A stretch of 64,000 bases of DNA from the NCBI GenBank assembly GCA_963823995.1, contig CAWGNQ010000005.1:514510-578509 (forward strand), read 5' to 3'. The translations under genes were made by a program, and so were the position numbers. Positions 4,455 to 51,476 of the stretch are shown here, piece by piece (the first letter of the stretch is position 1; every line of letters begins with the position of its first letter). The stretch is from an uncultured Acidobacteriota bacterium (GTDB taxonomy: Bacteria > Acidobacteriota > UBA6911 > RPQK01 > JAPXNP01). Under the pieces are notes generated by a model. That model was not told the origin of the DNA, did no database searches, and saw only the letters and a list, made by a program, of their open reading frames with translations.

Positions 4455-4530
4455 AATTGGTGACACGCACGTATCTCGATCGTAAGGTACTGAGAAGACA
4501 GGATTCTGACCCGAGTCTGGGACCAATTCC
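4455..4530 (+). repeat. Copy A of a conserved ~75-bp 3'-flanking repeat element (core GGTGACACGCACGTA ... CGTAAGG ... CCGAGTCTGG)
   Basis: Begins immediately after the GH9 stop (TGA at 4452-4454). Aligns with copies at 43433, 43638(-), 43777(-) and 51410(-). Confidence 0.8.
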
Positions 4531-4890
4531 GGGAAGTCGCAGGTGGCCAGCTATTCGAGGGGAATGACCGGCAGGGTCGCGAACTGCCCAAGCCGGCTCT
4601 GAAGGACGGTGGCTGAGATCCTGCCGGACACCGTTACCTTCACGAGACCGGTCATATCGATGAGATTGACGGTGCCGTTCCATTGAACTTCGTCGGCGAA
4701 AAGATAACATGAGCGTTGAGCATTCTTTTCATCGTTCTGTCGCCTGAGTCGGCCATGTCCTCATCCCTTCGCTGGAGTATATTCGGCACGTCGTTCTTGA
4801 TCCCGGCGGGGCCTCCTTCTAGAATCTCCCGCAGTGACAGCCGTTCGTGCCACACGGTCCCCCAACCTCCGAATACCGAAGGAGCGTTCG

Positions 4891-6135
4891 ATGCGAGCCT
4901 TGATTCTAGCCGTTGCCACCCTCGTTGTGCAGTCCCCCGCCCTTCTCTCCCAGGGGCTTCCCAGGACCAGTCCGGAGATGGAGGGCCTCTCCACCCACCG
5001 CCTCGAGCGAATCGAACCGGTCATGGAGGACTATATCAAACGGGGCATCTTCCCCGGCATGACCGTCGCAGTCGCCAGGGGTGGCCAGCTCGTCTACTTC
5101 GAGTCTTTCGGGTATGCGGACATACAGACCCGAAAACCGGTCGCCCAGGATTCGATCTTCCGTATCTACTCGATGACGAAACCGGTCACGGCAACGGCTG
5201 TCATGATCCTCTTCGAAGAAGGGAAGTTCATGCTCGACGAGCCGGTGTCGAAGTACATTCCATCGTTCAAGAACGTCAAGGTCTACCGCCCCGAGGGTTC
5301 CGCCGAGTCGACCGAACCCTCCCGAGAGATCACCATCCGTGACCTTTTGCGACAGACCTCGGGTCTGGGCTACGGCTGGGAAGATGATCCTGTCAGTCAG
5401 GCTTACCGGGAAGCCAATCTCTTCGACCCGGACACGACGCTCGAGCAAATGGTCGACAAGTTGACCAGGCTTCCGCTTTACTTCGATCCGGGCGCTCAAT
5501 GGAAATACAGCGTGGCCATCGACGTTCTCGGCCGTCTGGTGGAGATCTGGTCCGGACAGACCCTGGCCGACTTCTTCCGGCAGCGGATCTTTGAACCGCT
5601 GGATATGCGGGACACTGCGTTTTCAGTTCCAGCCGACAAGGTGAATCGGTTCACCAACTGCTACCGCTTTACGGAGGAGGGCCGGCTGGAACCCCTTCCG
5701 AACGCCTTTTCGTCCTACTCACCCGAAAACAAGCACCTCTACTCGGGAGGAGGTGGTCTCGTCTCGACTGCCTCCGACTATCTCCGATTCGCCCAGATGC
5801 TGGCCAATGGTGGCGAACTTGAAGGAGTCCGGATCCTCGGCCCGAAGACGATCGAGCTGATGAGCATGAATCAGCTGCCGGACGGTGTGACGGCCCCCTG
5901 GGAGAAGCTCCAGGGCCACGGTTACGGCTTTGCCATGAGCGTGCTGACCGACATCGCGAAGAGTCTGACCGTCGGCTCGGTCGGAGACTTCGGCTGGGAC
6001 GGTGCCGCCTCGACTTACTTCCGGATTGATCCGAGTGAGAATCTCGTCATCCTCCTGATGACGCACCGCCAGCCCTGTGACACGGAGATTCAGGTCAAAC
6101 TCAAGACTCTGGTCTACCAGGCCCTGACCGACTAG
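4891..6135 (+). CDS. Serine hydrolase, beta-lactamase-related (class C / esterase family), secreted
   Basis: SMTK (SxxK) motif, overall length and composition typical of the AmpC/esterase fold. Signal peptide MRALILAVATLVVQSPALLS. GGAG RBS 6 nt upstream of the ATG at 4891. Confidence 0.85.
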   Translation: MRALILAVATLVVQSPALLSQGLPRTSPEMEGLSTHRLERIEPVMEDYIKRGIFPGMTVAVARGGQLVYFESFGYADIQTRKPVAQDSIFRIYSMTKPVTATAVMILFEEGKFMLDEPVSKYIPSFKNVKVYRPEGSAESTEPSREITIRDLLRQTSGLGYGWEDDPVSQAYREANLFDPDTTLEQMVDKLTRLPLYFDPGAQWKYSVAIDVLGRLVEIWSGQTLADFFRQRIFEPLDMRDTAFSVPADKVNRFTNCYRFTEEGRLEPLPNAFSSYSPENKHLYSGGGGLVSTASDYLRFAQMLANGGELEGVRILGPKTIELMSMNQLPDGVTAPWEKLQGHGYGFAMSVLTDIAKSLTVGSVGDFGWDGAASTYFRIDPSENLVILLMTHRQPCDTEIQVKLKTLVYQALTD

Positions 6136-6164
6136 GTCGCCCCCATTCGATTTCAGCAGGGGTA

Positions 6165-6237
6165 TAGCCCCAACGGGATTCGAACCCGTGTTACCGGCGT
6201 GAGAGGCCGGCGTCCTAGTCCTCTAGACGATGGGGCC
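6165..6237 (-). tRNA. tRNA-Glu (anticodon CUC)
   Basis: Minus-strand sequence GGCCCCATCGTCTAGAGGACTAGGACGCCGGCCTCTCACGCCGGTAACACGGGTTCGAATCCCGTTGGGGCTA folds as a cloverleaf nearly collinear with E. coli tRNA-Glu. Anticodon loop CUCUCAC (U33, CUC, A37). T-loop TTCGAAT. CCA not encoded. Confidence 0.85.
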
Positions 6238-6451
6238 TTGCGCGAAGTGAAGGCGCTATTCTCCGGTAGCCGAGCCATCGTTGTCAAATGTCCGAAGCAT
6301 GGCGGTGCTTCCTCCGACGTCGTGGCGGGTCCCCGGGCCGAGCGAGTTGACAAACCGGCGGCGAATGCCTGGAATGATAGGAGTTGCGCTTCGCTTTCCG
6401 GTTGTCTCCCTCGAGAGTGAGGCACCGACCAAATCAACTTGGAGGTTGCGT

Positions 6452-7150
6452 ATGATCGCCTTGACCTGGGTCCCATTGCTTCTCACCGCCCTGACGGCTC
6501 CTGCGGATACGGCCGGGGACATTGAAATCGTTCCGATCACCCATGCGTCCCTGATCCTCGAATGGGAGGGTCATGTCGTCTACGTGGATCCCTGGGGCCG
6601 CGGAGATTTCTCAGGTCAGCCCAAAGCCGACCTGATTCTGATCACTCACACACATGGTGATCATCTTGATTTAGGCCAAATCGCAGAATCGAGCAAGGAG
6701 AATACCATCCTCATCGGTCCAATGGCTGTCCAGGAACAGGTGACTCAGGCCCGGATTCTGCGAAATGGTGAAAAGACCGAGGTTCTAGGCATCGGGATCG
6801 AGGCCGTGCCGGCCTATAACATCCAGCGCGGGCCGTCTCCAGGCCGACTGTATCACCCCAAAGGGGAAGGCAACGGCTACGTGCTGACAATGGGCTCACA
6901 GCGAGTCTACATTTCCGGCGACACCGAATGCACCCCGGAGATGCAAGCCCTCCACGACATCGACGTCGCGTTCCTCTGCATGAACCTCCCCTACACGATG
7001 ACAGCCGATGAGGCAGCGGGATGCGTCAATGCGTTCCACCCCAAGGTGGTCTATCCGTATCACTACCGGGGAACCGACCTGCAGGCGTTCAAGGCGAAGG
7101 TGAGCCCGGATACCGAGGTACGGATCGCAAACTGGTATCCGGGGCAATGA
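6452..7150 (+). CDS. MBL-fold metallo-hydrolase, secreted
   Basis: HTHGDH zinc-binding motif. Signal peptide MIALTWVPLLLTALTAPADTAG. GGAGG RBS 6 nt upstream of the ATG at 6452. The ORF track starts earlier, at 6281. Confidence 0.85.
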   Translation: MIALTWVPLLLTALTAPADTAGDIEIVPITHASLILEWEGHVVYVDPWGRGDFSGQPKADLILITHTHGDHLDLGQIAESSKENTILIGPMAVQEQVTQARILRNGEKTEVLGIGIEAVPAYNIQRGPSPGRLYHPKGEGNGYVLTMGSQRVYISGDTECTPEMQALHDIDVAFLCMNLPYTMTADEAAGCVNAFHPKVVYPYHYRGTDLQAFKAKVSPDTEVRIANWYPGQ

Positions 7151-7257
7151 ATGGCAATCCAGGCAGCATTACCTGAACTGTCCGACTGGGAGCCGGGCCG
7201 GGCCCGGCGGCCCGGCCGAACCGGCAGGCCGACAGCCTGGATTGACTTGACCCTGCC

Positions 7258-7464
7258 TTACCTGGATTCGAAGCAGCTGCGGCCTGCTTTGCAACCTTGC
7301 TTGTCGGCGACTTTGCCGTCAGGTCCCAGGCAGTTCATGGTGTGTGTACACCAGTAGATACCGTCGCTCATGTTCGGGATGCGCGGATCCGGCTCGGCCT
7401 CGATGAACATTCCCTTGGATCGCAGGCGCCGGCAGATGTCCCGGCCGACTCTCTCCATGACCAT
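7258..7464 (-). CDS. Small cysteine-rich protein (68 aa, 5 Cys) translationally coupled to the 3' end of the molybdoenzyme operon; function unknown
   Basis: ATG at 7464 overlaps the TAA stop of the FAD subunit by 1 nt. GC3-rich codons. Cys pattern C11, C39, C45, C58, C64 (YWCTHTMNCLGPDGKVADKQGCKAGRSCF). No family recognised by eye. Confidence 0.45.
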   Translation of the reverse strand: MVMERVGRDICRRLRSKGMFIEAEPDPRIPNMSDGIYWCTHTMNCLGPDGKVADKQGCKAGRSCFESR

Positions 7465-8444
7465 TACGTTACCTCCATTCCTGCGGCCCTCAGGACGGCC
7501 CGCTTGACCGCCACCCTTGCGAGGGTCACTTTATAGCCGTTCTTGCTCAGCGGCTTCGCGCCCTGAACAGCCGCGGCGCCGGCCGCCTCGGCGGTCTGAA
7601 CGCTGACGGACTGGCCCGTCAGCGCCTGGCCCGCCGCCGGAACCGGCCACGGCTTGGGAGCCACCTGGCCGAGCACTACTTCGGCCGACTGGACGTTATT
7701 GCCGTTCATCTCCAGCACGGCCACTGCCACGACCAACGGCCAGTCCATGGCTTCCCGCTCGCGGACCTCGTAGACGGCCGCCTTTCGGTTGGCTGCTGGA
7801 GGGATCAGGATCCCGGTAACGATCTCATCGTCGGCCAGATCATATTCCTTCTGGCCTTCTGCTGTCGGGATCTTGAAGAAATCGGCGACAGCCACCTGGC
7901 GGCTGCCACCGGTTCCCTGGATACCGACCTTGGCCCCGTAGGCAATCAGAGCAGGCGCCAGGGTGGAAGGGTTCACAAAGTAGGCAGGACCGGAGTTGCC
8001 GAGGATGGCATGGTATCGGTTGTCCCCGTTCACCACCATCGACTTGCCATCCTGCATCGCCAGGAGTCCATAGCCGTGACGGTAGTACCAGCAGCGCGGA
8101 CGCTGGCACAGGTCACCGCCCACCGTTCCCATGCTCTCCAGCTGCGGGCTGCGTACTCCGTCGGCTGCCTGAACGAGCGCCGGATAGCGCTCGCCGATGA
8201 GGGAGTTGCTCATCAGCTCATCCAGCGTTACCAGCGCGCCGATCCGGACTCCCTGGTCGCCATTGTCCTGGATCCCCTCGAGATCCGCGATCGACTTGAT
8301 ATTGACGAGGCGCTTCGGAGCGGCAACCCCCTGCTTCATGAGGCTGAGCAGATCCGTGCCACCGGCCAGGACCGCGGCATCCAACCCAAGTAGCTTGACC
8401 GCAGTTTCGACCGTGTTCGGGCTCGCATATTCGAATGTGTTCAT
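7464..8444 (-). CDS. Xanthine dehydrogenase family, FAD-binding medium subunit (CoxM/PaoB-like)
   Basis: FAD-binding PCMH motif LAGGTDLLSLMKQG. ATGA overlap with the large-subunit stop at 8444. Confidence 0.9.
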   Translation of the reverse strand: MNTFEYASPNTVETAVKLLGLDAAVLAGGTDLLSLMKQGVAAPKRLVNIKSIADLEGIQDNGDQGVRIGALVTLDELMSNSLIGERYPALVQAADGVRSPQLESMGTVGGDLCQRPRCWYYRHGYGLLAMQDGKSMVVNGDNRYHAILGNSGPAYFVNPSTLAPALIAYGAKVGIQGTGGSRQVAVADFFKIPTAEGQKEYDLADDEIVTGILIPPAANRKAAVYEVREREAMDWPLVVAVAVLEMNGNNVQSAEVVLGQVAPKPWPVPAAGQALTGQSVSVQTAEAAGAAAVQGAKPLSKNGYKVTLARVAVKRAVLRAAGMEVT

Positions 8445-10573
8445 CAGGCTGCTCCTCCTTTCTCGAGCGCCTGCAGGACCCGGTCCGGGGTCAATGGCAG
8501 GTGGGGAACACGAACGCCGACGGCATTCGCCACGGCGTTGGAGATCGCCGCACCGGGCGAAATGACGGGCGGCTCTCCCAGGCCGATGACACCGCGTTCG
8601 TCGTAGCCCGGACCCGTCATCATGTGGACGACGAGATCGCCGATGTCCCCGATGCCGGCGAGCTTGTAGAACTCCATGTCGTCATTGAGAAGACGTCCGG
8701 TAATGGGATCCATAACCCGTTCTTCCATCAGCGAGTAGGTGATGCCCATTATCATGGCCCCGTAGACCTGGCTACGCGCCGTCAGGATATCGATGATCAG
8801 CCCGCAATCCTGGACGGCCACCATCTTGTTGATGCGGACTCGTCCGGTTTCGGTGTCGACGCTGACGTCGGCCATCTGGATCCCTCCGACACCGCTGTCG
8901 ATCAGGTTACCTGGGCCGGGGTTGCGGCCCACCACACTGATCGGAGTCGCACCCAGAAGGCCGGTGGCCGTCTTCCAGCTCATTGACCGGCTCGGGTCGC
9001 TCCTGACCTGGACCCGGTAATTGACGAGTTCGAGCTCCTCCGGCTTGGCATCCAGTTCCTCGCCGATTCTGAGCAGCAGAGCATCAAGCGCCATCAGGGC
9101 CGCGCGGCGTGAGGAAGAACTGACACCACCGACGGTTGTGCTTCCGCCGGAGGCCCCGGAAGCGGGGAACCGGCTGTCGCCGATGCGAACCGTAATATCC
9201 TTTGGCTGCAATCCAAATGCGTCTGCCACGACCGTGGCGATGACCGTTCTCGTTCCCGTCCCGAGATCCTGGCTGCCGAGCCGGATCTCGACCGACGAAT
9301 CAGGGTTGATCACGAGCTCACAGTTGCTCTGATGCCCACGACCGCCCCAGGTATGAAGCGACAGACCAAGCCCGCGTTTGACGGGGCCGTCTCCATTCTG
9401 GCCCCGGGGCTTCCAGGCATTCTTCCACCCGATCAGATCCGCACCCAGCTTCAACTCTTCCGCGTAGGAGTCTGCGAGCTGTCCCGTCATCTGGATGTTC
9501 TTGAGGAAGAAATCGAGCGGGTCCATGTCGATGGCCGCCGCGGCATCCTCGAGCGCAGCCATCGTGATGAGGCAGGCCTGAGGATGGTTGGGAGCTCTCC
9601 AGGCCCGCGAGGGTCCGGTATTGGTCGGAACCGAGGTGTGCTGGTGCCTGCGGTTCGGGACCTCGAAGACATACGGTAGTGGTGGACTGCCGGCACCGCC
9701 GGGTCCACCCGTCCCCCAGGACTCGGACGTCCAGGCTGCGATCTCGCCGGTCGATTTGACTCCGACCTTGACGTTCGCGTAGGCGGACGGACGTCCGCCC
9801 GCCACCTGCAACTCGGCATCCCGATCCAGCATCAGCTTGACCGGACGCTTGGTCAACTTGGCAAGTCGCGCACACTCGATGCCCCAGCGATCGGCGCTGA
9901 ACTTGCTGCCGAATCCACCCCCCATGTGGTGGCACAGGACACGGACATTGGCTGCCGGAATCTCCAGGGCTTCGGCGAACTGGCCGGGGATGACACTGAC
10001 GCCCTGAGTCGACTCATACACCACAAGGTGCTGGTCGTCTTCCCAGTAGGCAGTCGTGCCGTGGGCCTCCATGCAGCAGTGAGAGATCAATGCGAGGCCG
10101 TAGTCGCCGTCCGAGACTTTGTCGGCTCCGGTCATTCCGGCGTCCGGCTCGCCGACCGTCTCCGCCTGGGCTGCCTGGGCGTTCGGCGCAGCATCCTTCT
10201 TTTCGGCATCGAGAAAATGAGACAGTACTTCGTACTCCACCTTGATCGCCGCCAGGGCATCACGGGCAAGCTCTTCGGTGTCGGCAGCCACGGAGGCGAT
10301 CTCGTCGGCGGCCCACTGAATCTCCGTGCCCGCACCCTGGATCACGTGCACTGCCCTGACGCCGTCCATCTGCTCGGCCGCCGAGGTGTCGATGCTCACG
10401 ATCCGAGCGTGCGCGTGAGGGCAGGTCAGCATCTTGGCGTGCAGGAGCCCGTAGAGATTGACGTCGTACGTATATTGAGCCGCGCCCGTAGACTTGACCG
10501 GCCCATCGATACGTCGGGTTTCGCGCCCTATCCACCAGCGTTGGTCTTCTGAAGGCCAGCTGTACTCAGGCAT
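8444..10573 (-). CDS. Xanthine dehydrogenase family, molybdopterin-binding large subunit (CoxL/PaoC-like)
   Basis: About 709 aa with typical aldehyde-oxidase/XDH Mo-binding domain composition. Start is the ATG at 10573 (MPEYSWPSEDQ...), overlapping the small-subunit stop (ATGCCTGA), with GGAGGG RBS. The ORF track extends it spuriously to 10867. Confidence 0.9.
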   Translation of the reverse strand: MPEYSWPSEDQRWWIGRETRRIDGPVKSTGAAQYTYDVNLYGLLHAKMLTCPHAHARIVSIDTSAAEQMDGVRAVHVIQGAGTEIQWAADEIASVAADTEELARDALAAIKVEYEVLSHFLDAEKKDAAPNAQAAQAETVGEPDAGMTGADKVSDGDYGLALISHCCMEAHGTTAYWEDDQHLVVYESTQGVSVIPGQFAEALEIPAANVRVLCHHMGGGFGSKFSADRWGIECARLAKLTKRPVKLMLDRDAELQVAGGRPSAYANVKVGVKSTGEIAAWTSESWGTGGPGGAGSPPLPYVFEVPNRRHQHTSVPTNTGPSRAWRAPNHPQACLITMAALEDAAAAIDMDPLDFFLKNIQMTGQLADSYAEELKLGADLIGWKNAWKPRGQNGDGPVKRGLGLSLHTWGGRGHQSNCELVINPDSSVEIRLGSQDLGTGTRTVIATVVADAFGLQPKDITVRIGDSRFPASGASGGSTTVGGVSSSSRRAALMALDALLLRIGEELDAKPEELELVNYRVQVRSDPSRSMSWKTATGLLGATPISVVGRNPGPGNLIDSGVGGIQMADVSVDTETGRVRINKMVAVQDCGLIIDILTARSQVYGAMIMGITYSLMEERVMDPITGRLLNDDMEFYKLAGIGDIGDLVVHMMTGPGYDERGVIGLGEPPVISPGAAISNAVANAVGVRVPHLPLTPDRVLQALEKGGAA

Positions 10574-12422: not shown

Positions 12423-12591
12423 TCGGATTACCGGGAGTGAACTCGGGTCATCGATGTGCTCGACTTTGTCCCGCGGTTTTCTACAGTAAAAGATGTCGAT
12501 TTGGTGGCTGCATGACCTCGATTCTGCAGCGACCGTCGCTCGTTCCGATGGCTGCTGAGACTTCTCCCTCGTGCCTGAACGGAGTACCCGA

Positions 12592-16187: not shown

Positions 16188-16206
16188 GCCAGGGAGATCA
16201 AGACTC

Positions 16207-39629: not shown

Positions 39630-39633
39630 TACA

Positions 39634-40028: not shown

Positions 40029-40029
40029 T

Positions 40030-41085: not shown

Positions 41086-43441
41086 TTGAGAAAGTCCGTG
41101 GTTCTGACTCTGGCAACCCTCTTCATCGTTTCCACTCGGTTCGAATTCTCCCAAACCGGCGGTGATCGTCCCCTCTATCGGGATCCGAACCAGCCGATCG
41201 CGCGCAGAGTCGAGGACCTCCTGAACCGCATGACGCTCGAAGAGAAGATCGGCCAGATGAATATGCCGTGCGTTTATGAAGACGGGCTGGGACGCAGCAT
41301 CGAGGCCAAGACCTCGAGTGTGAAAGCGTGGGCCGCCGGAACCTTGATCGAAAACTTGGGCCCGAGCGGCGGGTACTTCACCCTGCCCAACACGATCCTG
41401 CGCGAGGGGACCCGGCAACAGGTTCTGTTCCTGAACGAACTGCAACGAATCGCCGCCGGGACCCGACTCGGGATTCCGCTGCTCGAAACCGAAGAAGGCA
41501 CCCACGGTCTGATGTGTTCCGGAACGACGATCTTCCCGGAAGGGCCGGCCCTGGGCAGCACCTGGGACCTGGACCTCATTTCGCGCATCTACGCCGCCGT
41601 CGCCCGGGAGGCCCGCTCGATCGGCATCCACCAGATTTTCACACTCGTCGTCGAGCCGATCCGGGATCCGAGGCTGGGCCGGAACCAGGAAGCGTACAGT
41701 GAAGATCCGTACCTGTGTTCACGCTTGGCCGAAACGATCGTGCGAGCCGCCCAAGGGAACGATGTCTCGTCTCCCGATCACGTCGTGGCCGGCCTGTGCC
41801 ACTATCCGGGACAGAGCCAGCCGGTCAGCGGACTCGAACGGGGTGCCATGGAGATCTCGGAGCGGACCCTCCGGGAGACCTTTCTTCCCTCCTGGGAAGC
41901 CGGAATCAAAAAGGCGGGGGGCCTCGGCGTCATGGCGACCTATCCGGCCGTCAACGGGGTACCCACGCACGCGTCCGAATGGCTTCTAACACAGATCCTG
42001 CGGAAAGAGTTGGGCTTTCGCGGGCTCGTCTTGAGCGAAGGCGGGGGCATCGGCACGCTGGTCTATGAAGGTTTGGCTCCGAACCAGAAGATCGCCGGTC
42101 GGCTGGCGCTCCGGGCCGGGGTGGATGTGGGCATCTCCTTTGAATCGGGCTATATGCAGGACCTGGTCCACTCCGTTGAGGAGGGCGCAGTGCCCATGGA
42201 ACTGATTGATCGGGCTGTCGGACGCATCCTGGAGCAGAAGTTCCGCCTCGGACTGTTCGAGAATGCGCAGTCAGACCTGGACAGGGCCGTCGAGGTCGTC
42301 CACAGCGGAAATCATCAGGATCTTGCCCTCGAGGCGGCTCGTGAGGGTGTCGTCCTCTTGAAGAACCAGGATGAGCTGCTGCCTCTGAGCGACAACATCC
42401 GCTCCCTCGCGGTCATCGGGCCCAACGCGGACAACGAGCGGAACCAGCTGGGAGACTACGTCGCCCACACCGTTCTTCAGGACGTGGTCACCGTGCTCGA
42501 CGGCATCCGACAGGCCGTCTCTCCAACGACCGGCGTGACCTACGTCAAGGGATGTGACGTCACCCTGACGCCGTACGACGAGATTGCCAGGGCCAGGGTC
42601 GGCCGCAGCCGGAGCCGACTGCGCCGTCGTCGTCCTCGGTGAGAACGAATGGCAGGCCCGGGACGAGGACGGCAAGCGGGTCGGGACCGACGGAGAGGGC
42701 TTCGATTCCGCCACTCTCGAGTTGACCGGAAGGCAGCGGGAGCTGGTCCAGGCAGTCGTCGACACCGGAACGCCCACCGTCGTCGTTCTGATCAACGGGC
42801 GTCCGCTGGCGACGCGTTGGATCGACGCCCACGTTCCGGCCGTCGTCGAGGCCTGGATCCCCGGCGAGAAGGGGGGCCAGGCCGTCGCGGAAGTCCTCCT
42901 CGGAAAGGTCGATCCGAGCGGAAAGTTGAGCGTGACCGTACCCCGGCACGTCGGCCAGTTGCCTGTCTACTACGACCACAAGAAGTCGAAGCGCTACTGG
43001 ATCCGGCATGGCTGGGGCAGGCCCTACGTGGACATGGATCCCGCACCCCTCTATCCGTTCGGTCACGGCCTGAGCTATACGTCCTTCGAATACGAGAATC
43101 TCAGGATCACGCCGGAACAAATCGGACCAGGTGGAACGGTGACGGTTCAGATGGATTTGCGCAACAGGGGATCACGCTACGGGAAAGAGGTCGTTCAGCT
43201 CTACATCGAAGACCTCGTGGCGACGGTGGCGACGCCGGTCAAGGAACTGCGCGGCTTCGAGAAGATCGGTCTGCGGCCCGGAGAGACGAAAACGGTGACC
43301 TTCGAGCTGACACCGGACCTCCTGGCCCTCTACGACCGCCACATGCAGAGGGTCGTCGAGCCCGGCCGCTTCAAGGTCAAGCTCGGCAGTTCCTCCCAGG
43401 ACATCCGCCTCACCGGCACCTTCACGGTCCAAAATCGGTGA
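41086..43441 (+). CDS. Glycoside hydrolase family 3 (beta-glucosidase/beta-xylosidase-like) with C-terminal Fn3-like domain; reading frame broken near 42593-42612
   Basis: GH3 N-domain (KIGQMN..., HYPGQS, GLVLSEGGGIG) in frame 1 up to 42642. GH3 C-domain and Fn3-like domain (CAVVVLGENEW ... PLYPFGHGLSY) in frame 2 from about 42590. The switch lies in the direct repeat CCAGGGCCAGGG. Start inferred as TTG at 41086 (MRKSVVLTLATLFIVST signal), low certainty. The ORF-track N-terminal extension to 40216 is antisense of the CE4 gene. Confidence 0.75.
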
Positions 43442-43505
43442 CACGCACGTAACGGCGTCGTAAGGTCCTGCCAACAAAGACTTTTGGTGCCGGTCTGGTA
43501 CTTCT
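43433..43505 (+). repeat. Copy B of the 3'-flanking repeat element
   Basis: aatcGGTGACACGCACGTAacggcgtCGTAAGGtcctgccaacaaagacttttggtgCCGGTCTGGtac. The GH3 stop TGA (43439-43441) lies inside the GGTGAC core. Confidence 0.8.
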
Positions 43506-43637
43506 TTGGAAACCAGCTGCGCATACGATGGTGAGGATGCGTGGCCGGAACCGCCTCCGATGGGAGCTGGTGAGGCACTTCGAGCAGGGCATCATCCAGC
43601 CGATTCGGAGCAAGGCGCGCCCGCGTCGAAATTGGAG

Positions 43638-43709
43638 AAAAGTACCAGACTCGGACCAGAAGCCTTTATTAGTAACCACTTACGAGGCAATTACGTGCGT
43701 GTCACCAAT
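43638..43709 (-). repeat. Copy C of the 3'-flanking repeat element (inverted orientation)
   Basis: The reverse complement reads gattGGTGACACGCACGTAattgcctCGTAAGtggttactaataaaggcttctggtCCGAGTCTGGtac. Forms an inverted pair with copy B about 130 bp away. Confidence 0.8.
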
Positions 43710-43776
43710 CTCCCTGGAATCGCCGTCGCTCGTGGGCGTCCGGGGGCGCTGTTTTCCACCGCAAAACTGGGGAAAG

Positions 43777-43853
43777 GTGCCAGACGTAGCACGAAAGTCT
43801 TTGTTGATGATGGTTTACAAGTCTAATCCGTGCGTGTCACCAATTTCGTCCAG
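43777..43853 (-). repeat. Copy D of the 3'-flanking repeat element (inverted orientation)
   Basis: The reverse complement reads aattGGTGACACGCACGgattagactTGTAAaccatcatcaacaaagactttcgtgctaCGTCTGGcac. Starts 9 nt after the GH51 stop (TGA at 43854-43856, minus strand). Confidence 0.75.
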
Positions 43854-45449
43854 TCACACATCGAGACGGAGGATGTTCACCGAATGCGGACCGAGCGCGA
43901 TCGTTCCGTCGAAACCGTCCAGCCGGCGGGTCTCGGGCTTCACTCTCTCCGGGTGATTCACGTCGTTGTACGCGTCGGGGGAGGGTCCTGCCAGGATCGT
44001 GACCGTGGGGCGGGAGTTCCCGGACGCATTCGCGAGCATCGGCCGGCAGACCACGGTCGCGTCGGGGTGCCGATTCACGATGGCCATCGAAACGGCTCGA
44101 CGATCGTCGCTGCAGGTGACGACGGCGTCCAGGACGGGCACGCTCTCGCCGCTGTGCGCGAAGGCGTCACACCGAACCGAGGACGCGACCATGTTCGGCT
44201 GCAGGAACTCGCCGTACATCTTCAGGACATGGAAAGTCGTGCGCTTGACGATGCCTTTCGGGTGGACGAACAGAGGCCCCCGGGTGTTGACGACAGGCGC
44301 CATGTTGGCCATGTAGATATGCTTCGCCTGCCGGATGCACGCGTTCAGGAAGCACCCCGAAAAACAGGCATCGGCCATCGTGTACGTGTCGTTCAAATCG
44401 TTCTTGTCCCGCTCCTTCAGGAGTTCCTCGCTCTTCCTGATCGGATAATTGCCGGGATGATGCCAACCCCTCAGATTCCATTCATCGAAGGCGATCCGGA
44501 CTCGGTCGGAGAGTTCCGCCTCTTCGAGAATCGCAATCGTGTCGAAAATCTGTGCTTCGGGCTTGACGGATCGCATCATGCAGTCCGCATAGCCGCTGAC
44601 ATTGTTGACCTGCCAGAGCGGATCCCAGTAACCGTGGATCGAGATGTAGTCCAGATAGTCTCCGGCACGCTCGAGCAGGGGCATCGTCCACTCACGATTG
44701 GACTGGGCGGCGGCGAACAGTTTGATCGAGGGATCGACCATCCGCATCATCTTGGCCGATTCGCGAACGAAATAGCCCCACTCTTCGTCGGTCTTCGCTC
44801 CGATTTCCCAGCCGCCGTAGTTCTCGTTCCCAATGCTCCAGTAACGGACATTGTGGGGTTCCGCGAAGCCGTTTCCCTGTCGCATCTTCGCGTACTGTCC
44901 TTCGTGTTCCAGATTGCAGTACTCGACCCAGTCGCTCATTTCCTCAGGCGTGCCGGAACCCGCATTCGTGCAGATATAGGGTTCGGCCCCGATCTCCCGG
45001 CACCAGGTCACGAACTCGTCGGTGCCGAAGGTATTCGGATCCTCGACCTTCCAGGCTTTGTCATAGGCGGCGACGCGCGGCGTGGCGACACCGTTCTTCC
45101 AGTGGTATCCGGAGACGAAGCAGCCACCGGGCCAACGGACGACCGGCACCTTCAGCTCGCGCAACGCCGCGATGACGTCCTTGCGAAAGCCCCGCCTGTC
45201 CGAAAGCGGAGATCCGGGCGCGAAGATTCCTCCGTACACCTGACGGTGGAAGTGCTCGATGAACTGGCCGAAGATCATCCGGCTGACGGGCGTCAAATCG
45301 GACTGCAGGTCGACTTCGATCTCTGCAGATGTAGACTGAGCGAACATTCCACGCAGCGAGTGGGAAAAAGCGGCGGCACCAAGCGTCGTCTTTGTCGTCA
45401 CGCCGAAGAAATTGCGTCGATTCATCTCATTCATCGCTTTGATACTCAT
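43854..45449 (-). CDS. Glycoside hydrolase family 51 alpha-L-arabinofuranosidase with TAT signal peptide
   Basis: IGNENYGGWE catalytic-region motif. TAT motif NRRNFFGVTTKTTLGAAAF. ATG at 45449 (MSIKAMNEMNRRNFF) with GGAGG RBS 5 nt upstream. Confidence 0.85.
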   Translation of the reverse strand: MSIKAMNEMNRRNFFGVTTKTTLGAAAFSHSLRGMFAQSTSAEIEVDLQSDLTPVSRMIFGQFIEHFHRQVYGGIFAPGSPLSDRRGFRKDVIAALRELKVPVVRWPGGCFVSGYHWKNGVATPRVAAYDKAWKVEDPNTFGTDEFVTWCREIGAEPYICTNAGSGTPEEMSDWVEYCNLEHEGQYAKMRQGNGFAEPHNVRYWSIGNENYGGWEIGAKTDEEWGYFVRESAKMMRMVDPSIKLFAAAQSNREWTMPLLERAGDYLDYISIHGYWDPLWQVNNVSGYADCMMRSVKPEAQIFDTIAILEEAELSDRVRIAFDEWNLRGWHHPGNYPIRKSEELLKERDKNDLNDTYTMADACFSGCFLNACIRQAKHIYMANMAPVVNTRGPLFVHPKGIVKRTTFHVLKMYGEFLQPNMVASSVRCDAFAHSGESVPVLDAVVTCSDDRRAVSMAIVNRHPDATVVCRPMLANASGNSRPTVTILAGPSPDAYNDVNHPERVKPETRRLDGFDGTIALGPHSVNILRLDV

Positions 45450-45650
45450 CAAAACCTCCCCGCCTGCGAAGAAATCTCCCACCTATTACACGCTTCGGAC
45501 TCATCATTAGCTATGGCTTTGAATCGGAGAAATGTCAAGGATTGATTGGCTCGAGGGATTCGCGGACCCTTCTCCCGTGTACCGCCGCGAGTGTCCGTAT
45601 CTGTCGCCGATGCCGTATTGTCGGCTCACGGAGGAGGCCGATTGAGGGTC

Positions 45651-45899
45651 TCAGCTCCGCAATTGAGGACCGGGCGGCTGGCCGGCTGCGGTGGCGGATA
45701 GACCCTTGCGATTCTGTTCCCGCACGGTACTCGCAAGGTAGGACACTTTGACGAAGATCAGCGACAAAAGCATGATCACCATGCCGAAGAACGGGTCCGT
45801 CTCGAAGAAGCCGGACATGGCACCCATCAGGATCACCAAAACGACTCCGACCAGGATTCCGGTGAGATCGACCTTCAGGTTCTCTTTGTTGATAGACAT
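45651..45899 (-). CDS. Small membrane protein (83 aa, two predicted TM helices)
   Basis: MSINKENLKVDLTGILVGVVLVILMGAMSGFFETDPFFGMVIMLLSLIFV. AAGGAG RBS before the ATG at 45899. Lies directly downstream of the anti-sigma factor gene. Confidence 0.5.
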   Translation of the reverse strand: MSINKENLKVDLTGILVGVVLVILMGAMSGFFETDPFFGMVIMLLSLIFVKVSYLASTVREQNRKGLSATAAGQPPGPQLRS

Positions 45900-45901
45900 G
45901 A

Positions 45902-46420
45902 TCAGAATTCTCCTTTCGCCGCCCGGCTCCAGAACGATCCAAGCCGGCTTGCGCCGAGAACGAGGAGAGTCGCCGACGTGGAGACGAACACGATCACCGT
46001 CATCTGAACTGCTCCCCAACTGTTCGCGACGGCATTTGCCAGTCGCAACTTGTCGGTCCGAGTGTCCCAGTCCATCAGGACCATGACGCCCACCGCCACC
46101 ACACTGGCGACCAGAGGGACGACGACGTTGAACGCCGCTGCCCAAGTGCCACGCGTAGACGGGGCGGAACTCGTCGCTTCGATCGCTGCAATCGCCCCGA
46201 ACGTCTCCGACTCCAAAGCTTCCAGTTTCGCCTCCGCAAGATCGGGAGATGCCAGCGCCGTAACAAGATCCTCACGCTCCCGCTGGAGCCGTTCGAGGGT
46301 GGAGGTGCAGTGTGGGCACGCGGCCAGGTGAGTCCGAAGCGCGTGTTCGGCCCGCGAGGAGAGCTCCCCCTCAACCAGCAGCTCCAGTTGTGAAAACATC
46401 TCTTCACAGCTCACTTGCAT
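45902..46420 (-). CDS. Anti-sigma factor with zinc-finger (ZAS-type HxxxCxxC) and one transmembrane segment
   Basis: HLAACPHC motif near the N-terminus. Central TM helix (VVVPLVASVVAVGVMVLM). Start overlaps the stop of the upstream ECF sigma gene. Confidence 0.7.
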   Translation of the reverse strand: MQVSCEEMFSQLELLVEGELSSRAEHALRTHLAACPHCTSTLERLQREREDLVTALASPDLAEAKLEALESETFGAIAAIEATSSAPSTRGTWAAAFNVVVPLVASVVAVGVMVLMDWDTRTDKLRLANAVANSWGAVQMTVIVFVSTSATLLVLGASRLGSFWSRAAKGEF

Positions 46421-46965
46421 TCCTCCTTCGCCACCATCCTTCGCCGCAGCAGCTCTTTGCCTCTCTTCAGACGCAGACCGACGGCGGAGACCGTCAACTG
46501 CAGGGCTGCTGCGATCTCCGCATAAGACATGTCGTGGGCGTACTTCAACGTCAGTACCGCCCGATATCCGGCTGGAAGCGTGCGTAGCGTCTGTCTCAGA
46601 CGTTCGTGTCGATCCACTTCTTTCGACCGTTGGTCCACCCAGGTGTCAGCCCGATATTCCGGGTCCTCGGGATCCTCCTCCATGGGTGCCTCCCTGTCCC
46701 GATGACGAGCCCGCAAAGCATCGATGGAGCAGTTGGCTGCGACGCGGAGTATCAGAGGTTGAAAGGGCCTGGCAGCATCGATCCGGCTGCGCATCCTGTA
46801 GACCCTCAAGAAAGTCTCCTGAACCACATCATCGGCCGCAGCTTCATTCTCCAGGATTCTCACCGCCAGCCAGTAGACCTCACGACAGGCGGCACGAAAG
46901 ATTTCGCGAAAGGCCCCGTCATCTCCCGCCACCCATCGCTCGATCGTGGTTCGACTCAACTCCAT
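46411..46965 (-). CDS. ECF (sigma-70 family group IV) RNA polymerase sigma factor
   Basis: Region 2 (VQETFLRVYR) and region 4 HTH (MSYAEIAAALQLTVSAVGLRLKRGK). Start at 46965 (MELSRTT...) or 46986. Confidence 0.85.
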   Translation of the reverse strand: MELSRTTIERWVAGDDGAFREIFRAACREVYWLAVRILENEAAADDVVQETFLRVYRMRSRIDAARPFQPLILRVAANCSIDALRARHRDREAPMEEDPEDPEYRADTWVDQRSKEVDRHERLRQTLRTLPAGYRAVLTLKYAHDMSYAEIAAALQLTVSAVGLRLKRGKELLRRRMVAKEECK

Positions 46966-47170
46966 CGCGCTCCCACCCCGTCTCATATTACGAATGAAGG
47001 ACCGGGAAAACTTACATCAATTACCTGAGCTGCGGGCAGCCAGTGAGTCGATTCGCGACATCAGTGCAGTTCGCCGGCTCTCTGATTCGCACTGCGCAAG
47101 TCCACGATAAGTCCGCCTTCTTTACGCTCTGGCCCGTCTGGGTTAAGCTCGGCCGAAAAGGAGAGTTTCG

Positions 47171-49270
47171 ATGAAAGCCAAGGACCGCGTTCGAATCCTG
47201 GCATGGCTCGCCCTGCTGTTCCTCATCGCATCCGGAAGCGCACTCTTTGCCCAGGATCAGCCTTGGACCGCCCCGGTACGAGGCTCTTGGGTCCAGACCG
47301 GACCTGCCGGCGCCGGAGACATCGTACTGGCCGACCAGGGTGACGGCTGTGAAATCGTTCTCGGCGGCGGCGAGAACTCGATCGTCCGACAGGCCGCGGA
47401 ATTCCTGGCAGGCGACATCGAAAGGATCAGCGGATACCGTCCACGGATCGTCGGCCAAGCCGGCGGGGATCGCGTCGCCATCCGGCTCGTCACACTGGGA
47501 CAGGGGCCGACACCTGAAGGAATCGACGCCGATTCAATGCAGGGGCAGTGGGAGGCCTACCGGGTCCTGACCGACGGCAAAACGGTCTGGCTCGTCGGAT
47601 CGGATTCCCGCGGTACCGCCTATGCTGCGTATACGCTCGCCGAGCGGCTGGGCATCGACCCGCTCTATCACTGGACCGGGTATACACCGGAGCACCATGA
47701 CCCTCTCGTGCTCAAGGCGACGCAACTCTCTCAGGGCCCGCCGACCTTCCGTTTCCGCGGGTTCTTCCATGACGACGAGGACATTCTGCCGCGGCCTTTC
47801 GATGAAAACGACTACCCACTGCAGACCGGCGATGTGGCGCTCGACTGGTACAAGCGGTTCTTTGAGACGGCGTTGCGGCTTCGCATGAACATGGTCGCCC
47901 CCTACACGCGAGTGCACCGGCGTTTCGAGATCCAGAAACTGGGAAGCGACTGGGGCCTTTACTATACGTCGCACCACTACGACATCCTGGTCTCCAACCC
48001 CTGGGGCCTGGAGCGCTTCGACCTGGCTGCGGAGCGGGGCGTCCGCCCGGAGTGGAATTGGTTCACCAATAGGGACGGCATGCTCAGGTTCTGGCGCGGA
48101 GGAGTCGAGGAGAACCGCAGCATCGACGTGATCTGGCCCGTGGGTATGCGGGGCACAGCCGACCGCCCCTACATCTTTCCTCCGGGCATCACGGACGCCG
48201 ACAAGGCCCGGGTCTTCCGCCAGGCCATCCAGGATCAGGTCAACATGGTCAAGGAGCTGCTGCCCGAGGGAAAGACCCCTTTGTTCCATTTCACGATGTA
48301 TACCGAGATGCTCGATCAGTACCTGCGCAATCCGGATGCCTTTGACCTTCCCGACGACGTGATCATCGTCTGGCCGGACGACAACAACGGGCACATGCGG
48401 GCGCTGCCGAAGACGCTCGGCAGGTGGAAGCACGGAGTCTACTACCACCTCGCTTACCTCGGCGGAAACCTGAGCAAGCAGAACACGCACATCGTCGCCC
48501 CGGCGACGATCGCCGACGAGTTCGACAAGATCGTCCAGGCCGGCGCGACCGAGTTCATGCTGGTCAACGTCTCGGAGCTGCGCGAATACGTCATGGGTGC
48601 GCGTATGCTCTCCGACATCACCTGGAACGCCTCCACGGCACTTGCAGCGACCCATCCGCCCGACCGATTCGTCGGCTGGTGGAGCCGGGAGTATTTCGGC
48701 GCCCCGGCCGCCGATGCGACGAAGGCCGTCTACCAGCAGTACTACACGCTTCTCGACACTCCGGACAAACTGTGGCTGGCCTCGGATGCGATTCAGGAAT
48801 CGCTGGATCAGCTCTACGGCAGGGTCGCAGGGCAGACATACGGTCCGCTCAACGCGGAACTCCTCGATCTCCTGCAATCGAGAGGCCCCAAGCTGGCGGA
48901 ATCCCTGGCCGCAGCCGAGCAGGCAAAACGGCAGATGTCTCCCGAACAGCAGCAGTACTTCACGGAAAACGCCGAGCTTGGCCTGCGTCTGGCCGAGCGA
49001 CAGAACCGGGCGGCGCGCAAGCTGGCTGAAGCCCTTCAGGCTCGCGACGATGCCGAGATGTGGCGGCTGGTCGAAGAAGCCCGCACACCTCTCGAACAGC
49101 TCGAAATGGAATTGCACTGGGCCGAACATCCCCCATTCGACACCTGGTACCGCGAAAGCTGGATCCGCTCGGAATTCTCGCGCAACAATCCGCACCGGTC
49201 CTACAACGAACTGCGAGCTTTCCTGACCAGTCAAGGCCGCAGCCGTCCGGTCCGGCCTGCGCGACGGTGA
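47171..49270 (+). CDS. Glycoside hydrolase family 115 (xylan alpha-1,2-glucuronidase-like), secreted
   Basis: WPDDNNG motif and domain order typical of GH115. Signal peptide MKAKDRVRILAWLALLFLIASGSALFA. AAGGAGAG RBS. Confidence 0.85.
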   Translation: MKAKDRVRILAWLALLFLIASGSALFAQDQPWTAPVRGSWVQTGPAGAGDIVLADQGDGCEIVLGGGENSIVRQAAEFLAGDIERISGYRPRIVGQAGGDRVAIRLVTLGQGPTPEGIDADSMQGQWEAYRVLTDGKTVWLVGSDSRGTAYAAYTLAERLGIDPLYHWTGYTPEHHDPLVLKATQLSQGPPTFRFRGFFHDDEDILPRPFDENDYPLQTGDVALDWYKRFFETALRLRMNMVAPYTRVHRRFEIQKLGSDWGLYYTSHHYDILVSNPWGLERFDLAAERGVRPEWNWFTNRDGMLRFWRGGVEENRSIDVIWPVGMRGTADRPYIFPPGITDADKARVFRQAIQDQVNMVKELLPEGKTPLFHFTMYTEMLDQYLRNPDAFDLPDDVIIVWPDDNNGHMRALPKTLGRWKHGVYYHLAYLGGNLSKQNTHIVAPATIADEFDKIVQAGATEFMLVNVSELREYVMGARMLSDITWNASTALAATHPPDRFVGWWSREYFGAPAADATKAVYQQYYTLLDTPDKLWLASDAIQESLDQLYGRVAGQTYGPLNAELLDLLQSRGPKLAESLAAAEQAKRQMSPEQQQYFTENAELGLRLAERQNRAARKLAEALQARDDAEMWRLVEEARTPLEQLEMELHWAEHPPFDTWYRESWIRSEFSRNNPHRSYNELRAFLTSQGRSRPVRPARR

Positions 49271-49299
49271 TACCGTGCAGTCTCGAATTGTGTGTGTCG

Positions 49300-51180
49300 T
49301 TAATCTCTCAGAGGCCTCACTGGCATGCTGGCCAGTTGACTGGGACGGGTCTGGAGAACCGTCGCCGCCGTTCGTCCGGTGGCCGTGACCTTCAGGATGC
49401 CCTGGAACTTCGTGAAGTCGACCTCGGTGTCCCATTCGAACTGGTCGACGTAGATCGCCTTCTGACCGAGGGGCGCCAGATCGACCGGGGCGGCGGTCGA
49501 GACCAACTCGCCGGTTGTGGAGTAGAGCTCGGCGGTCAGGGTCGTTCCGGATTGTGCGAGATTCTGGACCGCGACCCCCGTGTTCAGTCCGCGGGACCGG
49601 TCGGTCTGCATCGGCGCCGTGAAGCCTTCGGAGAGCGCGACACTGTTGCCCACGCCGGCCAGTCCGAAGGCCCCTCCGAAAGCGATGACTGCGGAGATAT
49701 TCGACGACGCCTCGATTCGGGCAGAACCGACCACGACCTCGCCGGCCCCGTCGGTTCGGAGAGTTCGAACGCCGTAGGGCGGGATCGTGATTTCATAACG
49801 TCCCGTGTGAGCCGTGCCGGGGATGGTGATTTCATCGCCGGTCACATCGAAGGTGAGGTCGACTCCCTCGGTATCTCTGAGCAGCAAGCCGACGGTCTCT
49901 TCTTCAGCGCCCGTGTTCGTCGCCGTGACCTCGCTCGACAGTCCCTGCCCGTCGGCGAACTGGGCAAAATTGAGGTAGCTGCCGAGGGTGATCAGCTCGA
50001 CGGTCAGAGTGGCACCGCCTCCGACCTGATTGCTTCCTGCCAGACGACGCTGCGAGCCCATGGCGTCTGTCGGGAGCGACACGGCCACCAGGTACTGGCT
50101 GGGATTCACGATCGCCATGCCGGTCCAGGGTGTCTGATCCCACTGCTGACGAATCCTGGAAGTCGAAGCGTTTCCGTCCGGGGACACCCGGGTCAACGTG
50201 AAGCGGTTGTCCTGGGTCGGGAGGATGACGTTGTTGACGGCTCCCCAACGGCTCTCGGTGGCAAACAGATTGAGGGAAGGAACGGCGGAAAAGGACCCAC
50301 TGAACTGCTGGATGAGCTTCTTGTAGTTCAGCGTGGCGTCCGTTCCATTGACGCTGTATGCCGTGGCGCCCGGACCGATCTGTCCGGGCGGGATGAAGAA
50401 AGCACCGATTACGTCATCGCCCGATTCCTCGATCTTGCTTCGGAAGTAGCCGTTGAACCCGCTCGGAACCGCGCCGCTGTAGAGGTTCACGCTCGCCTTC
50501 AGACTCCCGGAAAAGTCGAACTGGTGCAGGTTGTAGTCCAGCCGATTCGTGAAGACTTCATCGGCCGCCAGCCAAAGATCGTCGTCACTCGCACAGAGGG
50601 CGGCCTCGATCGACCCGAACTGGGCGTCCCAGTGCGTTCCCGTCCCGGAATAGTTGAACTCCAGATTCCAGTTCAGCGAATCTCGCTTCCAGATGTCGTA
50701 GTTGCCTGCGGTCGGATCATAGAGGGCACCCCAGATGGCGTTCGTGTTCGCCGCGAAGGTCGCGTTGGCGTAACCGTCGGAGGGCACTTCGCTCGTCGTC
50801 CACTGACTGTTCAGGTAGCATGCAAGGTTCGCCCTGGAGCCCTTCATGAAGCTGAAACAGGGGGCATTCATGACCGTGTGGAGCCCATAGCAGGATCCTT
50901 CGCACAGGGTCTGGCTCTGGGGATTGCTCAGGAGTCCGTCGTCGCTGTCGCTCCAGAAGACCTTCAGTCGGTTCTGTCCGGTGCCTCCGGCGATGTTGGC
51001 CAGGGCCCGAAGGACTCCCATCGATATGATTTCGGTTTCGTAGGGAGATGGATCATCCAGCGTCAGATAGCCTCTCTGGACCGACTCGATTCCCTCGGGA
51101 TCATCGCAGGGACAATGACTGTAGCCGCCGAGACAAATCAAGGAAAGCACACCTACCAATGAGAAACCGCGCCGTGACAT
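49300..51180 (-). CDS. Hypothetical secreted protein (about 626 aa) with C-terminal beta-sandwich-like repeats
   Basis: Signal peptide MSRRGFSLVGVLSLICLGGYS. GGAGG RBS before the ATG at 51180. No family recognised. The opposing 700-aa + ORF is Arg-rich antisense. Confidence 0.6.
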   Translation of the reverse strand: MSRRGFSLVGVLSLICLGGYSHCPCDDPEGIESVQRGYLTLDDPSPYETEIISMGVLRALANIAGGTGQNRLKVFWSDSDDGLLSNPQSQTLCEGSCYGLHTVMNAPCFSFMKGSRANLACYLNSQWTTSEVPSDGYANATFAANTNAIWGALYDPTAGNYDIWKRDSLNWNLEFNYSGTGTHWDAQFGSIEAALCASDDDLWLAADEVFTNRLDYNLHQFDFSGSLKASVNLYSGAVPSGFNGYFRSKIEESGDDVIGAFFIPPGQIGPGATAYSVNGTDATLNYKKLIQQFSGSFSAVPSLNLFATESRWGAVNNVILPTQDNRFTLTRVSPDGNASTSRIRQQWDQTPWTGMAIVNPSQYLVAVSLPTDAMGSQRRLAGSNQVGGGATLTVELITLGSYLNFAQFADGQGLSSEVTATNTGAEEETVGLLLRDTEGVDLTFDVTGDEITIPGTAHTGRYEITIPPYGVRTLRTDGAGEVVVGSARIEASSNISAVIAFGGAFGLAGVGNSVALSEGFTAPMQTDRSRGLNTGVAVQNLAQSGTTLTAELYSTTGELVSTAAPVDLAPLGQKAIYVDQFEWDTEVDFTKFQGILKVTATGRTAATVLQTRPSQLASMPVRPLRD

Positions 51181-51409
51181 CGAACCCTCCCCTCTTAAGG
51201 ACGAATGCAGGCGCATCCGTCGAAGAAACCGGTAAGAAATTGGGGTGATTCTACTCCTCTCGAATGCAATGTCAATATGTTCCCCATATTTCCATTTCAA
51301 AGAACCAGCAGGACACAGCGAAGGCGCGGGTTGGAGGACTCTTTGGGTTCTGAGGAGTGCTCTTTGTCCGTAGAAACGACGGGGAATCCTCTTGCAGCTT
51401 GCCCAATAC

Positions 51410-51476
51410 GTGCCAGACATGACCAAAAATCGCGTGTTGGCAACACGTTACGATCGACTTACGTGCGTGTCACCGA
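51410..51476 (-). repeat. Copy E of the 3'-flanking repeat element (inverted orientation)
   Basis: The reverse complement reads aatcGGTGACACGCACGTAagtcgatCGTAACGtgttgccaacacgcgatttttggtcaTGTCTGGcac. Starts about 45 nt after the stop of the small membrane-protein gene at 51520. Contains the perfect palindrome CGTGTTGGCAACACG. Confidence 0.75.

Follow-up and report, generated by a model that had tools for sequence, protein, structure and literature searches.

The repeat copies in the window and the genes beside them

The window analysed here is a stretch of 64 kb from an uncultured Acidobacteriota bacterium (contig CAWGNQ010000005.1, positions 514,510 to 578,509), and the element in question is a short dispersed repeat present in it in five copies, some of which adjoin the 3' ends of glycoside hydrolase genes. 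A preliminary description, made from the letters of the sequence, had listed the five copies and had left the choice between a REP/BIME-like element (repetitive extragenic palindrome/bacterial interspersed mosaic element) and a conserved RNA motif of the 3' untranslated region (3' UTR). All five copies were found again at their places and on their strands, far above chance expectation; they align without internal gaps, at a mean column identity of 66%, and the blocks that had been picked out as conserved are invariant among them. The register of the profile puts the unit at about 84 nt. Exact matches to the 13-mer GGTGACACGCACG number five in the window, one in each of the copies and none elsewhere, and at up to two mismatches it gives 8 matches against 2.4 expected, a number reached by none of 100 shuffles.

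The element opens at its 5' end with GAAATNGGTGACACGCACG, continues through the TCGTAAGT and AATAAAGGATT blocks and closes with GTCTGGNACCTATTTC at its 3' end (consensus nnGAAATnGGTGACACGCACGTAATTCGATCGTAAGTnCCTGCGAATAAAGGATTCTnnnnCnGGTCTGGCACCTATTTC). Its head, GAAATAGGTGACACGC, and its tail, GTCTGGCACCTATTTC, are imperfect reverse complements of each other and form terminal inverted repeats (TIRs) of 14–16 bp. There are two near-invariant blocks, one in the head (GGTGACACGCACG) and one in the tail (GTCTGGNAC), and head and tail are strongly asymmetric, both in their conservation and in their genomic placement. The element accounts for several annotation artefacts: stop codons borrowed from the repeat, overlong intergenic regions between convergent genes, and antisense open reading frames (ORFs) that yield YVRVTNF peptides. 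These peptides, already suspected of being spurious, are antisense translations of AAATTGGTGACACGCACGTA.

The first copy, c1 (4451–4534, plus strand; 68.9 bits with nhmmer), follows the GH9 gene. The Pfam-supported GH9 frame stops at 4243, and an overlapping frame (3936–4454) runs on to a TGA at 4452–4454. This second frame is coding-like between 4242 and 4451 (0.23 per codon, third-position GC content 0.74) and the tail of the GH9 frame is not, so the GH9 gene is likely to be frameshifted (over about 4034–4454), with its true stop at the TGA that the first bases of c1 overlap. Copies c2 (43429–43512, plus strand; 68.0 bits) and c3 (43631–43714, minus strand; 67.2 bits) are the left and right members of a convergent pair, with a spacer of 118 nt between their 3' ends (43513–43630) that is neither conserved nor palindromic. 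The ORF for the C-terminal part of the GH3 enzyme (42584–43441) ends within c2, and its TGA (43439–43441) falls inside the GGTGAC core, just as had been noted. Copy c4 (43766–43849, minus strand; 54.1 bits) stands behind the GH51 gene, its GAAAT beginning 6 nt past the stop codon (43854–43856, minus strand), and c3 lies in tandem 51 nt behind c4. The double role of c3, as tandem copy and as inverted partner, therefore agrees with the preliminary description.

The fifth copy, c5 (51399–51482, minus strand; 60.3 bits), lies in a region of about 900 bp without any called gene, about 220 nt upstream of a 626-aa gene (49300–51180, minus strand) and 44 nt after a doubtful 143-aa ORF. Its first 12 nt are repeated in tandem as a partial 5' duplicate (51482–51493, minus strand), so that GGAAATCGGTGA is present at 51493–51482 and again at 51481–51470. 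The ORF upstream of c5 (51520–51951), previously taken for a small membrane protein, has a near-neutral coding score (0.016 per codon), no Pfam match, and no counterpart among the called genes of the contig's public annotation. Of the four copies that had been placed directly behind stop codons, three thus stand (c2, c4 and, by way of the likely frameshift, c1), and the status of c5 as a stop-adjacent copy is doubtful.

Some further observations concern the genes beside the copies. Two overlapping frames make up the GH3 gene, and the break between them (42584–42642) cuts the GH3_C domain at profile position 67/68. An independent Logan assembly shows the same break as the ENA assembly does, and because the two agree an assembly error is the less likely cause; the break may be a real frameshift or the mark of a pseudogene. 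On the minus strand, between c5 and the 626-aa gene of unknown function, there is a promoter-like site at 51248–51275 that comes near the sigma-70 consensus (TTGACA-16-TAGAAT, 11 of 12 positions); another promoter-like site (TTGATC-17-TAGAAT) is found at 4797–4825, beside the gene downstream of c1.

Distribution, placement and folding of the family

A pattern scan of one genome per species (GGTGACACGCACG-N40-46-GTCTGG) returned at least 88 stretches. Among the matches listed, those with the exact 43-nt gap (62 nt in all) come nearly all from a handful of Acidobacteriota metagenome-assembled genomes (MAGs), and the scattered matches in other phyla, which have other gap lengths, are due to chance. 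When the five window copies were made into an nhmmer profile, it found at least 90 copies (83 distinct) in the Acidobacteriota loci fetched for comparison (designated L and a number), and a refined profile at least 102. The window's own genome is absent from these loci (about 80% nucleotide identity in one conserved gene). The element was found in none of 80 metagenomic loci that encode relatives of the GH51 protein at 54–70% identity, which confines it to one lineage, and its core 13-mer was not found in the searchable literature. At variable columns, identity is 0.63 within a MAG against 0.41–0.54 between MAGs, and mutual information is widespread between columns that do not pair, a pattern that points to subfamily structure. 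One subfamily (L045, L053, L076 and L077, all from the MAG JARRKC01) has a conserved 3' extension of about 40 nt (ATCGCGGC.TCC.T.GACTGCGG.AA.GACCGGCTGG), so that in this MAG a longer repeat contains the element; L045 and L053 additionally share a similar 5' flank.

With ORFs chosen by codon usage, the head of the element lies no more than 20 nt from a same-strand stop codon in 24–26 of 41–43 cases. Within 60 nt, head-to-stop placement in the sense orientation occurs 29 times, as against 4 cases of tail-to-stop placement in antisense (binomial p = 1e-5); the bias suspected from the window copies thus holds across the family. The tail has no such close neighbour, the median distance to the next gene being 250–300 nt on either strand. 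Roughly every second docked copy contains the stop codon itself, as the TGA of GGTGAC or the TAG of AATAGG. Given this sense docking on stops, the copies are almost certainly transcribed as 3' UTRs of the upstream genes. No relation is seen among the upstream genes, whose products (32 proteins) contain 70 Pfam families. This diversity disposes of a regulon, an idea raised by the three window copies behind glycoside hydrolases. Together with the differing frames and positions of the stop, it also disposes of a SECIS-like (selenocysteine insertion sequence) signal, in which a UGA would be followed by a GGUCUG loop.

Where neighbouring copies are no more than 1.5 kb apart, 22 of the pairs are convergent, 5 are tandem and none is divergent. 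The spacers of the convergent pairs measure 36–208 nt, with lengths clustered at 113–120 nt, 61 nt and 36–44 nt (spacer set: 43513–43630 of the window, L063, L025, L035, L006, L004, L027, L056 and L087). Those of 113–120 nt occur in six pairs, including that of the window (118 nt); they share no common sequence and are not palindromic, for which reason a longer palindromic unit was discarded. Spacers of about 61 nt and of 36–44 nt belong to other lineages, and one MAG has three loci at which the sequence of the 61-nt spacer is conserved. A hairpin formed by the two members of a pair, as in a REPIN, was considered as well and rejected, because partners do not resemble each other more than non-partners do (0.53 against 0.48 at variable columns); a doublet is also unlikely to act as one hairpin because the spacers are long and mostly unconserved. 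In 7 of 92 copies the element's own first 8–13 nt (AAATNGGTGAC) are tandemly duplicated directly upstream (window 51470–51493, minus strand, and L036, L047, L038, L171, L074 and L039). This duplication may be a footprint of cleavage and rejoining by an HUH enzyme, or else of slippage. The docking on stop codons and the exclusively convergent inverted pairs with their clustered spacers are real features of the family.

The placement behind stop codons is what would be expected of an RNA element selected by the host at the 3' UTR, be it a stability element, a factor-dependent terminator, a protein-binding site or a 3'-derived small RNA (sRNA). Copies so placed must be transcribed with the upstream gene, and the blocks, which stay near-invariant while the remainder of the unit drifts to about 50% identity, could be read as RNA recognition sequences; any link to a transposase gene would then be historical. 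Two positions of the terminal stem show C/U variation compatible with G-U pairing, and c5 has a hairpin followed by a run of T (51447–51433). This c5 site is the only one of its kind among the window copies, and terminator-like sites are not enriched in the region (7 against 6.4 expected). Rfam, searched at the gathering threshold over the whole window, returned only two tRNAs and a group II intron, and at E ≤ 10 it gave nothing relevant on 43300–44000, a segment holding three copies. The intron occupies 59122–60926 on the minus strand, where matches to Intron_gpII (59122–59197) and group-II-D1D4-2 (60811–60926) bracket a 482-aa ORF (59199–60647). A likeness to a tRNA T-arm, prompted by the few copies that read GGTTCGAGTC, was dropped, since most copies lack the loop and Rfam, over the whole window, calls no tRNA besides the two true ones.

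The alignment gives no better support to a fold. RNAalifold, run on 83 copies and on the five copies too, returned an empty consensus for the 83, and a scan of all column pairs found a maximum pairing excess of 0.20 and no helix above column composition. The sole consistent pairing is the terminal stem, with 14 pairs over 16 columns closing a 46-nt interior. When this stem is taken together with two small candidate hairpins, the fraction of paired cells is 80.5%, and it is 79.6% once partners have been shuffled between sequences; slid controls reach only 26–41%. Covariation scores 0.125 in the alignment and 0.118 in the shuffles, 92 of the 500 shuffles being at least as high. Since pairing and covariation match the shuffles, the ends owe their complementarity to the consensus sequence and not to compensatory change, and averaged base-pair probabilities showed nothing beyond this complementarity. 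The mean z-score for RNA folding is –0.04 over 83 copies, and for folding as single-stranded DNA it ranges from –0.86 to +0.66 over both strands of the five window copies. Some copies, moreover, do not lie behind a gene (c5, and 4568–4645 of L171), and a function in the 3' UTR does not explain why inverted copies flank a transposase gene on both sides, as described below. Neither the Rfam search nor the analysis of covariation thus favoured the structured RNA that the preliminary description had entertained, and an RNA element under host selection is improbable. The element is best read as a bacterial repeat whose kind is known and whose family is new, rather than as a new structured RNA, and is not one to be pursued as a riboswitch-like or sRNA candidate.

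A RAYT gene between inverted copies

A convergent pair of copies encloses an ORF in L007 and L021 (230 and 224 aa), and a frameshifted version of it in L074. In all, six loci have a gene for a REP-associated tyrosine transposase (RAYT) of 221–230 aa between inverted copies of the element (L007, L021, L171, L172, L173 and L177), with the L074 pseudogene as a seventh. Four of the six (L171, L172, L173 and L177) were fetched by RAYT protein identity, independently of the DNA motif. The enclosed ORF matches Pfam Y1_Tnp at 56–58 bits (cut-off 23), and its best NCBIfam model is that of the REP-associated tyrosine transposase (REP_Tyr_transpos, 61–71 bits). A profile of 25 RAYT sequences found as its best relative in the PDB the TnpA_REP of E. 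coli (4ER8, E = 3e-4), ahead of ISDra2 TnpA, and the HUH (NHVH) and tyrosine (RYVEQNPVRAG) motifs align with those of 4ER8; the profile was required for this, a PDB search with a single RAYT sequence having given no match. The motifs of the protein are NHVH or NHIH, LWQERF and YVEQNP, followed by a conserved C-terminal extension of about 85 aa, and no similarity to a helix-turn-helix (HTH) domain was found in Pfam at E ≤ 0.01.

The arrangement around the gene is regular. In L171 the copies lie at 2906–2985 (plus strand) and 3711–3789 (minus strand), on either side of the RAYT gene at 3001–3678. The flanking copies are at 2906–2983 (plus) and 3771–3843 (minus) in L172 and at 2406–2484 (plus) and 3317–3396 (minus) in L177; in L173 the upstream copy is at 2885–2963 and the next one downstream at 4497–4575. 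The heads face outward, and between the end of the upstream copy and the RAYT start codon there are 15–38 nt, which include the Shine-Dalgarno sequence directly after the copy. The downstream copy is 33–140 nt from the gene in L007, L021, L171, L172 and L177 and about 830 nt from it in L173. A ComM-like Mg-chelatase gene precedes the RAYT gene in L171, L172, L173 and L177, the upstream gene in L021 has Mg-chelatase domains, and the order URO-D, ComM-like gene, RAYT is common to L171–L173. The RAYTs at this conserved locus are 56–80% identical to each other, and such divergence at a conserved position argues for a RAYT that has probably been inherited vertically at a fixed locus. Two of the loci, L172 and L177, come from the window's own metagenome assembly (ERZ25039500, in which the window belongs to contig_23909), which ties the RAYT to the species of the window. 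The surroundings of the RAYT gene in L171 hold four copies in 2.6 kb (2904–5463), two of which (4568–4645 and 5383–5460) do not adjoin a gene stop; this suggests that copies cluster locally near the transposase locus.

The position of the upstream copy, directly ahead of the Shine-Dalgarno sequence, is also where a promoter or operator would be sought. Hexamer-like blocks can indeed be read in the alignment, as a sigma-70 –35/–10 pair (GTGACA-N17-TAAGTN) and as a direct repeat that could be a regulator site (CGTAA-N6-CGTAA), and c1 and c5 have same-strand genes 220–300 nt downstream. Across the family, however, downstream neighbours are divided evenly between the opposite strand (34) and the same strand (35), at a median of about 280–300 nt and with no preferred spacing, and a cassette of this kind fits poorly with 22 convergent pairs and no divergent one. 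The putative –10 element lacks conservation at position –7, and a promoter scan does not call the elements, finding instead separate, better sites at 51275–51248 and 4797–4825. A promoter or operator cassette is thus very improbable.

The gene between the inverted copies likewise bears on whether the element could be an ordinary miniature inverted-repeat transposable element (MITE) of a DDE-type insertion sequence, moved by way of its TIRs and unrelated to the RAYT. Such a MITE would have the dispersed, extragenic distribution, the TIRs of about 14–16 bp and the length of 84 nt that are seen here. The only gene ever found between inverted copies is, however, that of a Y1 HUH transposase and never that of a DDE enzyme; there is no excess of matching 2–8-mers at any pair of boundary offsets, as a target-site duplication would leave; near-identical copies are lacking; and head and tail differ in conservation and in placement. 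A DDE-type MITE is accordingly hardly credible.

With a probability of about 0.8, the five repeats are non-autonomous dispersed DNA repeats, the cognate REP/TIR sequence of an Acidobacteriota RAYT, a tyrosine transposase of the HUH-Y1 type. The linkage to the RAYT and the anatomy of the element are direct observations, and the REP/BIME-like alternative of the preliminary description is borne out by the extragenic dispersal in several Acidobacteriota genomes and by the convergent copies found on both sides of a RAYT-type gene at all the RAYT loci examined. If it acts as its homologues do, the TnpA_REP of E. coli and the TnpA of IS200/IS605, the RAYT would recognise the conserved blocks on single-stranded DNA and then cleave and rejoin at them, and the units would in this way be slowly copied or maintained. 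Copies that keep the recognition blocks would persist in the population while their other sequence drifts, and recognition of the head and tail blocks by the enzyme would explain why these stay near-invariant in drifting copies. From its position, the head would dock on, or even supply, the stop codon of the upstream gene in the sense orientation, and the copies would then be carried in 3' UTRs; any effect of the element on the mRNA would be secondary. A more far-reaching proposal is that the family is the genome-wide substrate population of a Group 1/subclass 2.1 RAYT, with the polar docking arising from insertion coupled to termination (of transcription or translation) or from a 3'-end function selected by the host, and with the quantised spacings (about 118, 61 and 40 nt) set by the geometry of the RAYT–DNA complex; this proposal is speculative and, as a whole, rather unlikely.

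Several points weigh against taking the repeats for the cognate sequence of a RAYT. There is no RAYT gene within the 64-kb window, so that the RAYT is linked to the window's genome by way of the shared sample, and the RAYT scores of 61–71 bits lie below the NCBIfam equivalog cut-off of 80. Pair partners do not resemble each other more than non-partners do, as given above, and no near-identical copies were seen (maximum identity at variable columns 0.82–0.86), so the repeat population must be an old one. The invariance of the blocks is partly ascertained in the fetched loci, where the search pattern required both of them, and is not so in the window. Mobility would follow from the reading, and the sole comparison of presence and absence is confounded. 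The locus concerned (L174) holds a GH51 ortholog with 84% identity and the same stop codon, and no element after it. A PhdYeFM/PIN toxin–antitoxin pair (5597–6549) is found behind GH51 in place of the repeats and GH3, and the gene that comes next has its stop overlapped by half of a copy, truncated, of the element (6678–6711); because the downstream DNA is rearranged, L174 is not a clean empty site. The metagenome scan for GH51 relatives gave for this purpose only loci at 70% identity or less, none of them with the element. To our knowledge, there is no biochemistry for this subclass of RAYT. To these points must be added the departures from the classical REP and REPIN, which are taken up in the following section.

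Comparison with known repeat systems

The RAYT belongs to the same superfamily (Pfam Y1_Tnp) as the transposases of IS200/IS605, and the element resembles these insertion sequences in its asymmetric ends and in the lack of a target-site duplication. It differs from them in having no subterminal hairpins, and the RAYT gene appears to occupy one conserved locus instead of being present in many identical copies; the IS200 model of NCBIfam, moreover, gives the protein only 23–25 bits. The likeness to the REP/BIME elements of E. coli and their TnpA_REP is closer, since these are also extragenic and multi-copy, lie mostly downstream of genes or between convergent genes, frequently form inverted pairs, and have a cognate Y1 HUH gene, single-copy in their case, that is flanked by the repeat. 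REPs in E. coli are, however, stable imperfect hairpins of 20–40 nt with a 5' GTAG, whereas the element is 84 nt long, folds no better than shuffled sequence, and has neither GTAG nor GTGG at either end (head consensus GAAATNGGTGACACGCACG), which speaks against a classical REP. With the REPINs of Pseudomonas fluorescens (Bertels and Rainey 2011), it shares inverted doublets of characteristic spacing, a RAYT whose inheritance is here probably vertical as well, and an old, slow population. The spacers of its pairs are long (36–120 nt) and mostly unconserved, unlike those of REPINs, and the hairpin-doublet model does not fit.

The class 3 TnpA-Y1 systems of Acidobacteria and Planctomycetes (Quentin et al. 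2018, PMC6006769), for which Solibacter usitatus has about 600 copies, resemble the present system in their acidobacterial host and in having atypical, non-REP flanking structures that are abundant in the genome. Class 3 proteins have Y----Q and W[TA], and their repeats a CnGA foot, whereas the RAYT described here has WQ and YVEQNP, the signature of class 2.

The closest likeness is to the TIRtrons of Di Nocera et al. (2013, PMC3733652), in which long TIRs that contain the motif GGGGWSAS enclose a RAYT-like gene (TIRYT); that study describes a distinct acidobacterial group of TIRYT proteins and a dispersed TIR family in Koribacter versatilis, which is likened to the element by its description. 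TIRYTs correspond to subclass 2.1 of TnpA-Y1 and to Group 1 of Bertels, with a median length of 238 aa, NHVH and Y---NP (Quentin et al. 2018, PMC6006769). The systems have in common a RAYT-like gene placed between long inverted repeats other than GTAG REPs, and TIR copies dispersed as singles, dimers and groups. Their Y1 transposases also appear alike, being of about 225–238 aa with NHVH, WQ, Y---NP and a C-terminal extension, which in TIRYTs has HTH-like similarity. The core of the element, GGTGACAC, fits the TIRtron motif GGGG[AT][CG]A[CG] (PMC3733652, PMC6006769) at 7 of 8 positions, and the minus-strand copy of L074 at about 1786–1866 reads GGGGACAC there. Judged by its motifs and length, the RAYT is best read as a member of subclass 2.1. 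The polar docking on stop codons and the clustered pair spacings are features not described for TIRtrons in the passages of PMC3733652 drawn on here.

Group 1 is the largest group of RAYTs, and systematic surveys report no REP-like partner for it; no REP-like hairpins were found beside subclass 2.1 genes (Quentin et al. 2018, PMC6006769), and the abundance of flanking 16-mers is only modest for Group 1 (Bertels et al. 2017, PMC5581495). The link of these TIRYT/Group 1 proteins, the most widespread RAYTs, to repeats is disputed, and the present family offers a clean pairing of such a protein with an abundant, easily recognised 84-nt repeat. With its sharp blocks, its head-to-stop polarity and its 5' duplications, which may mark the cleavage site, it is a usable model for the choice and copying of substrates by this group of transposases.

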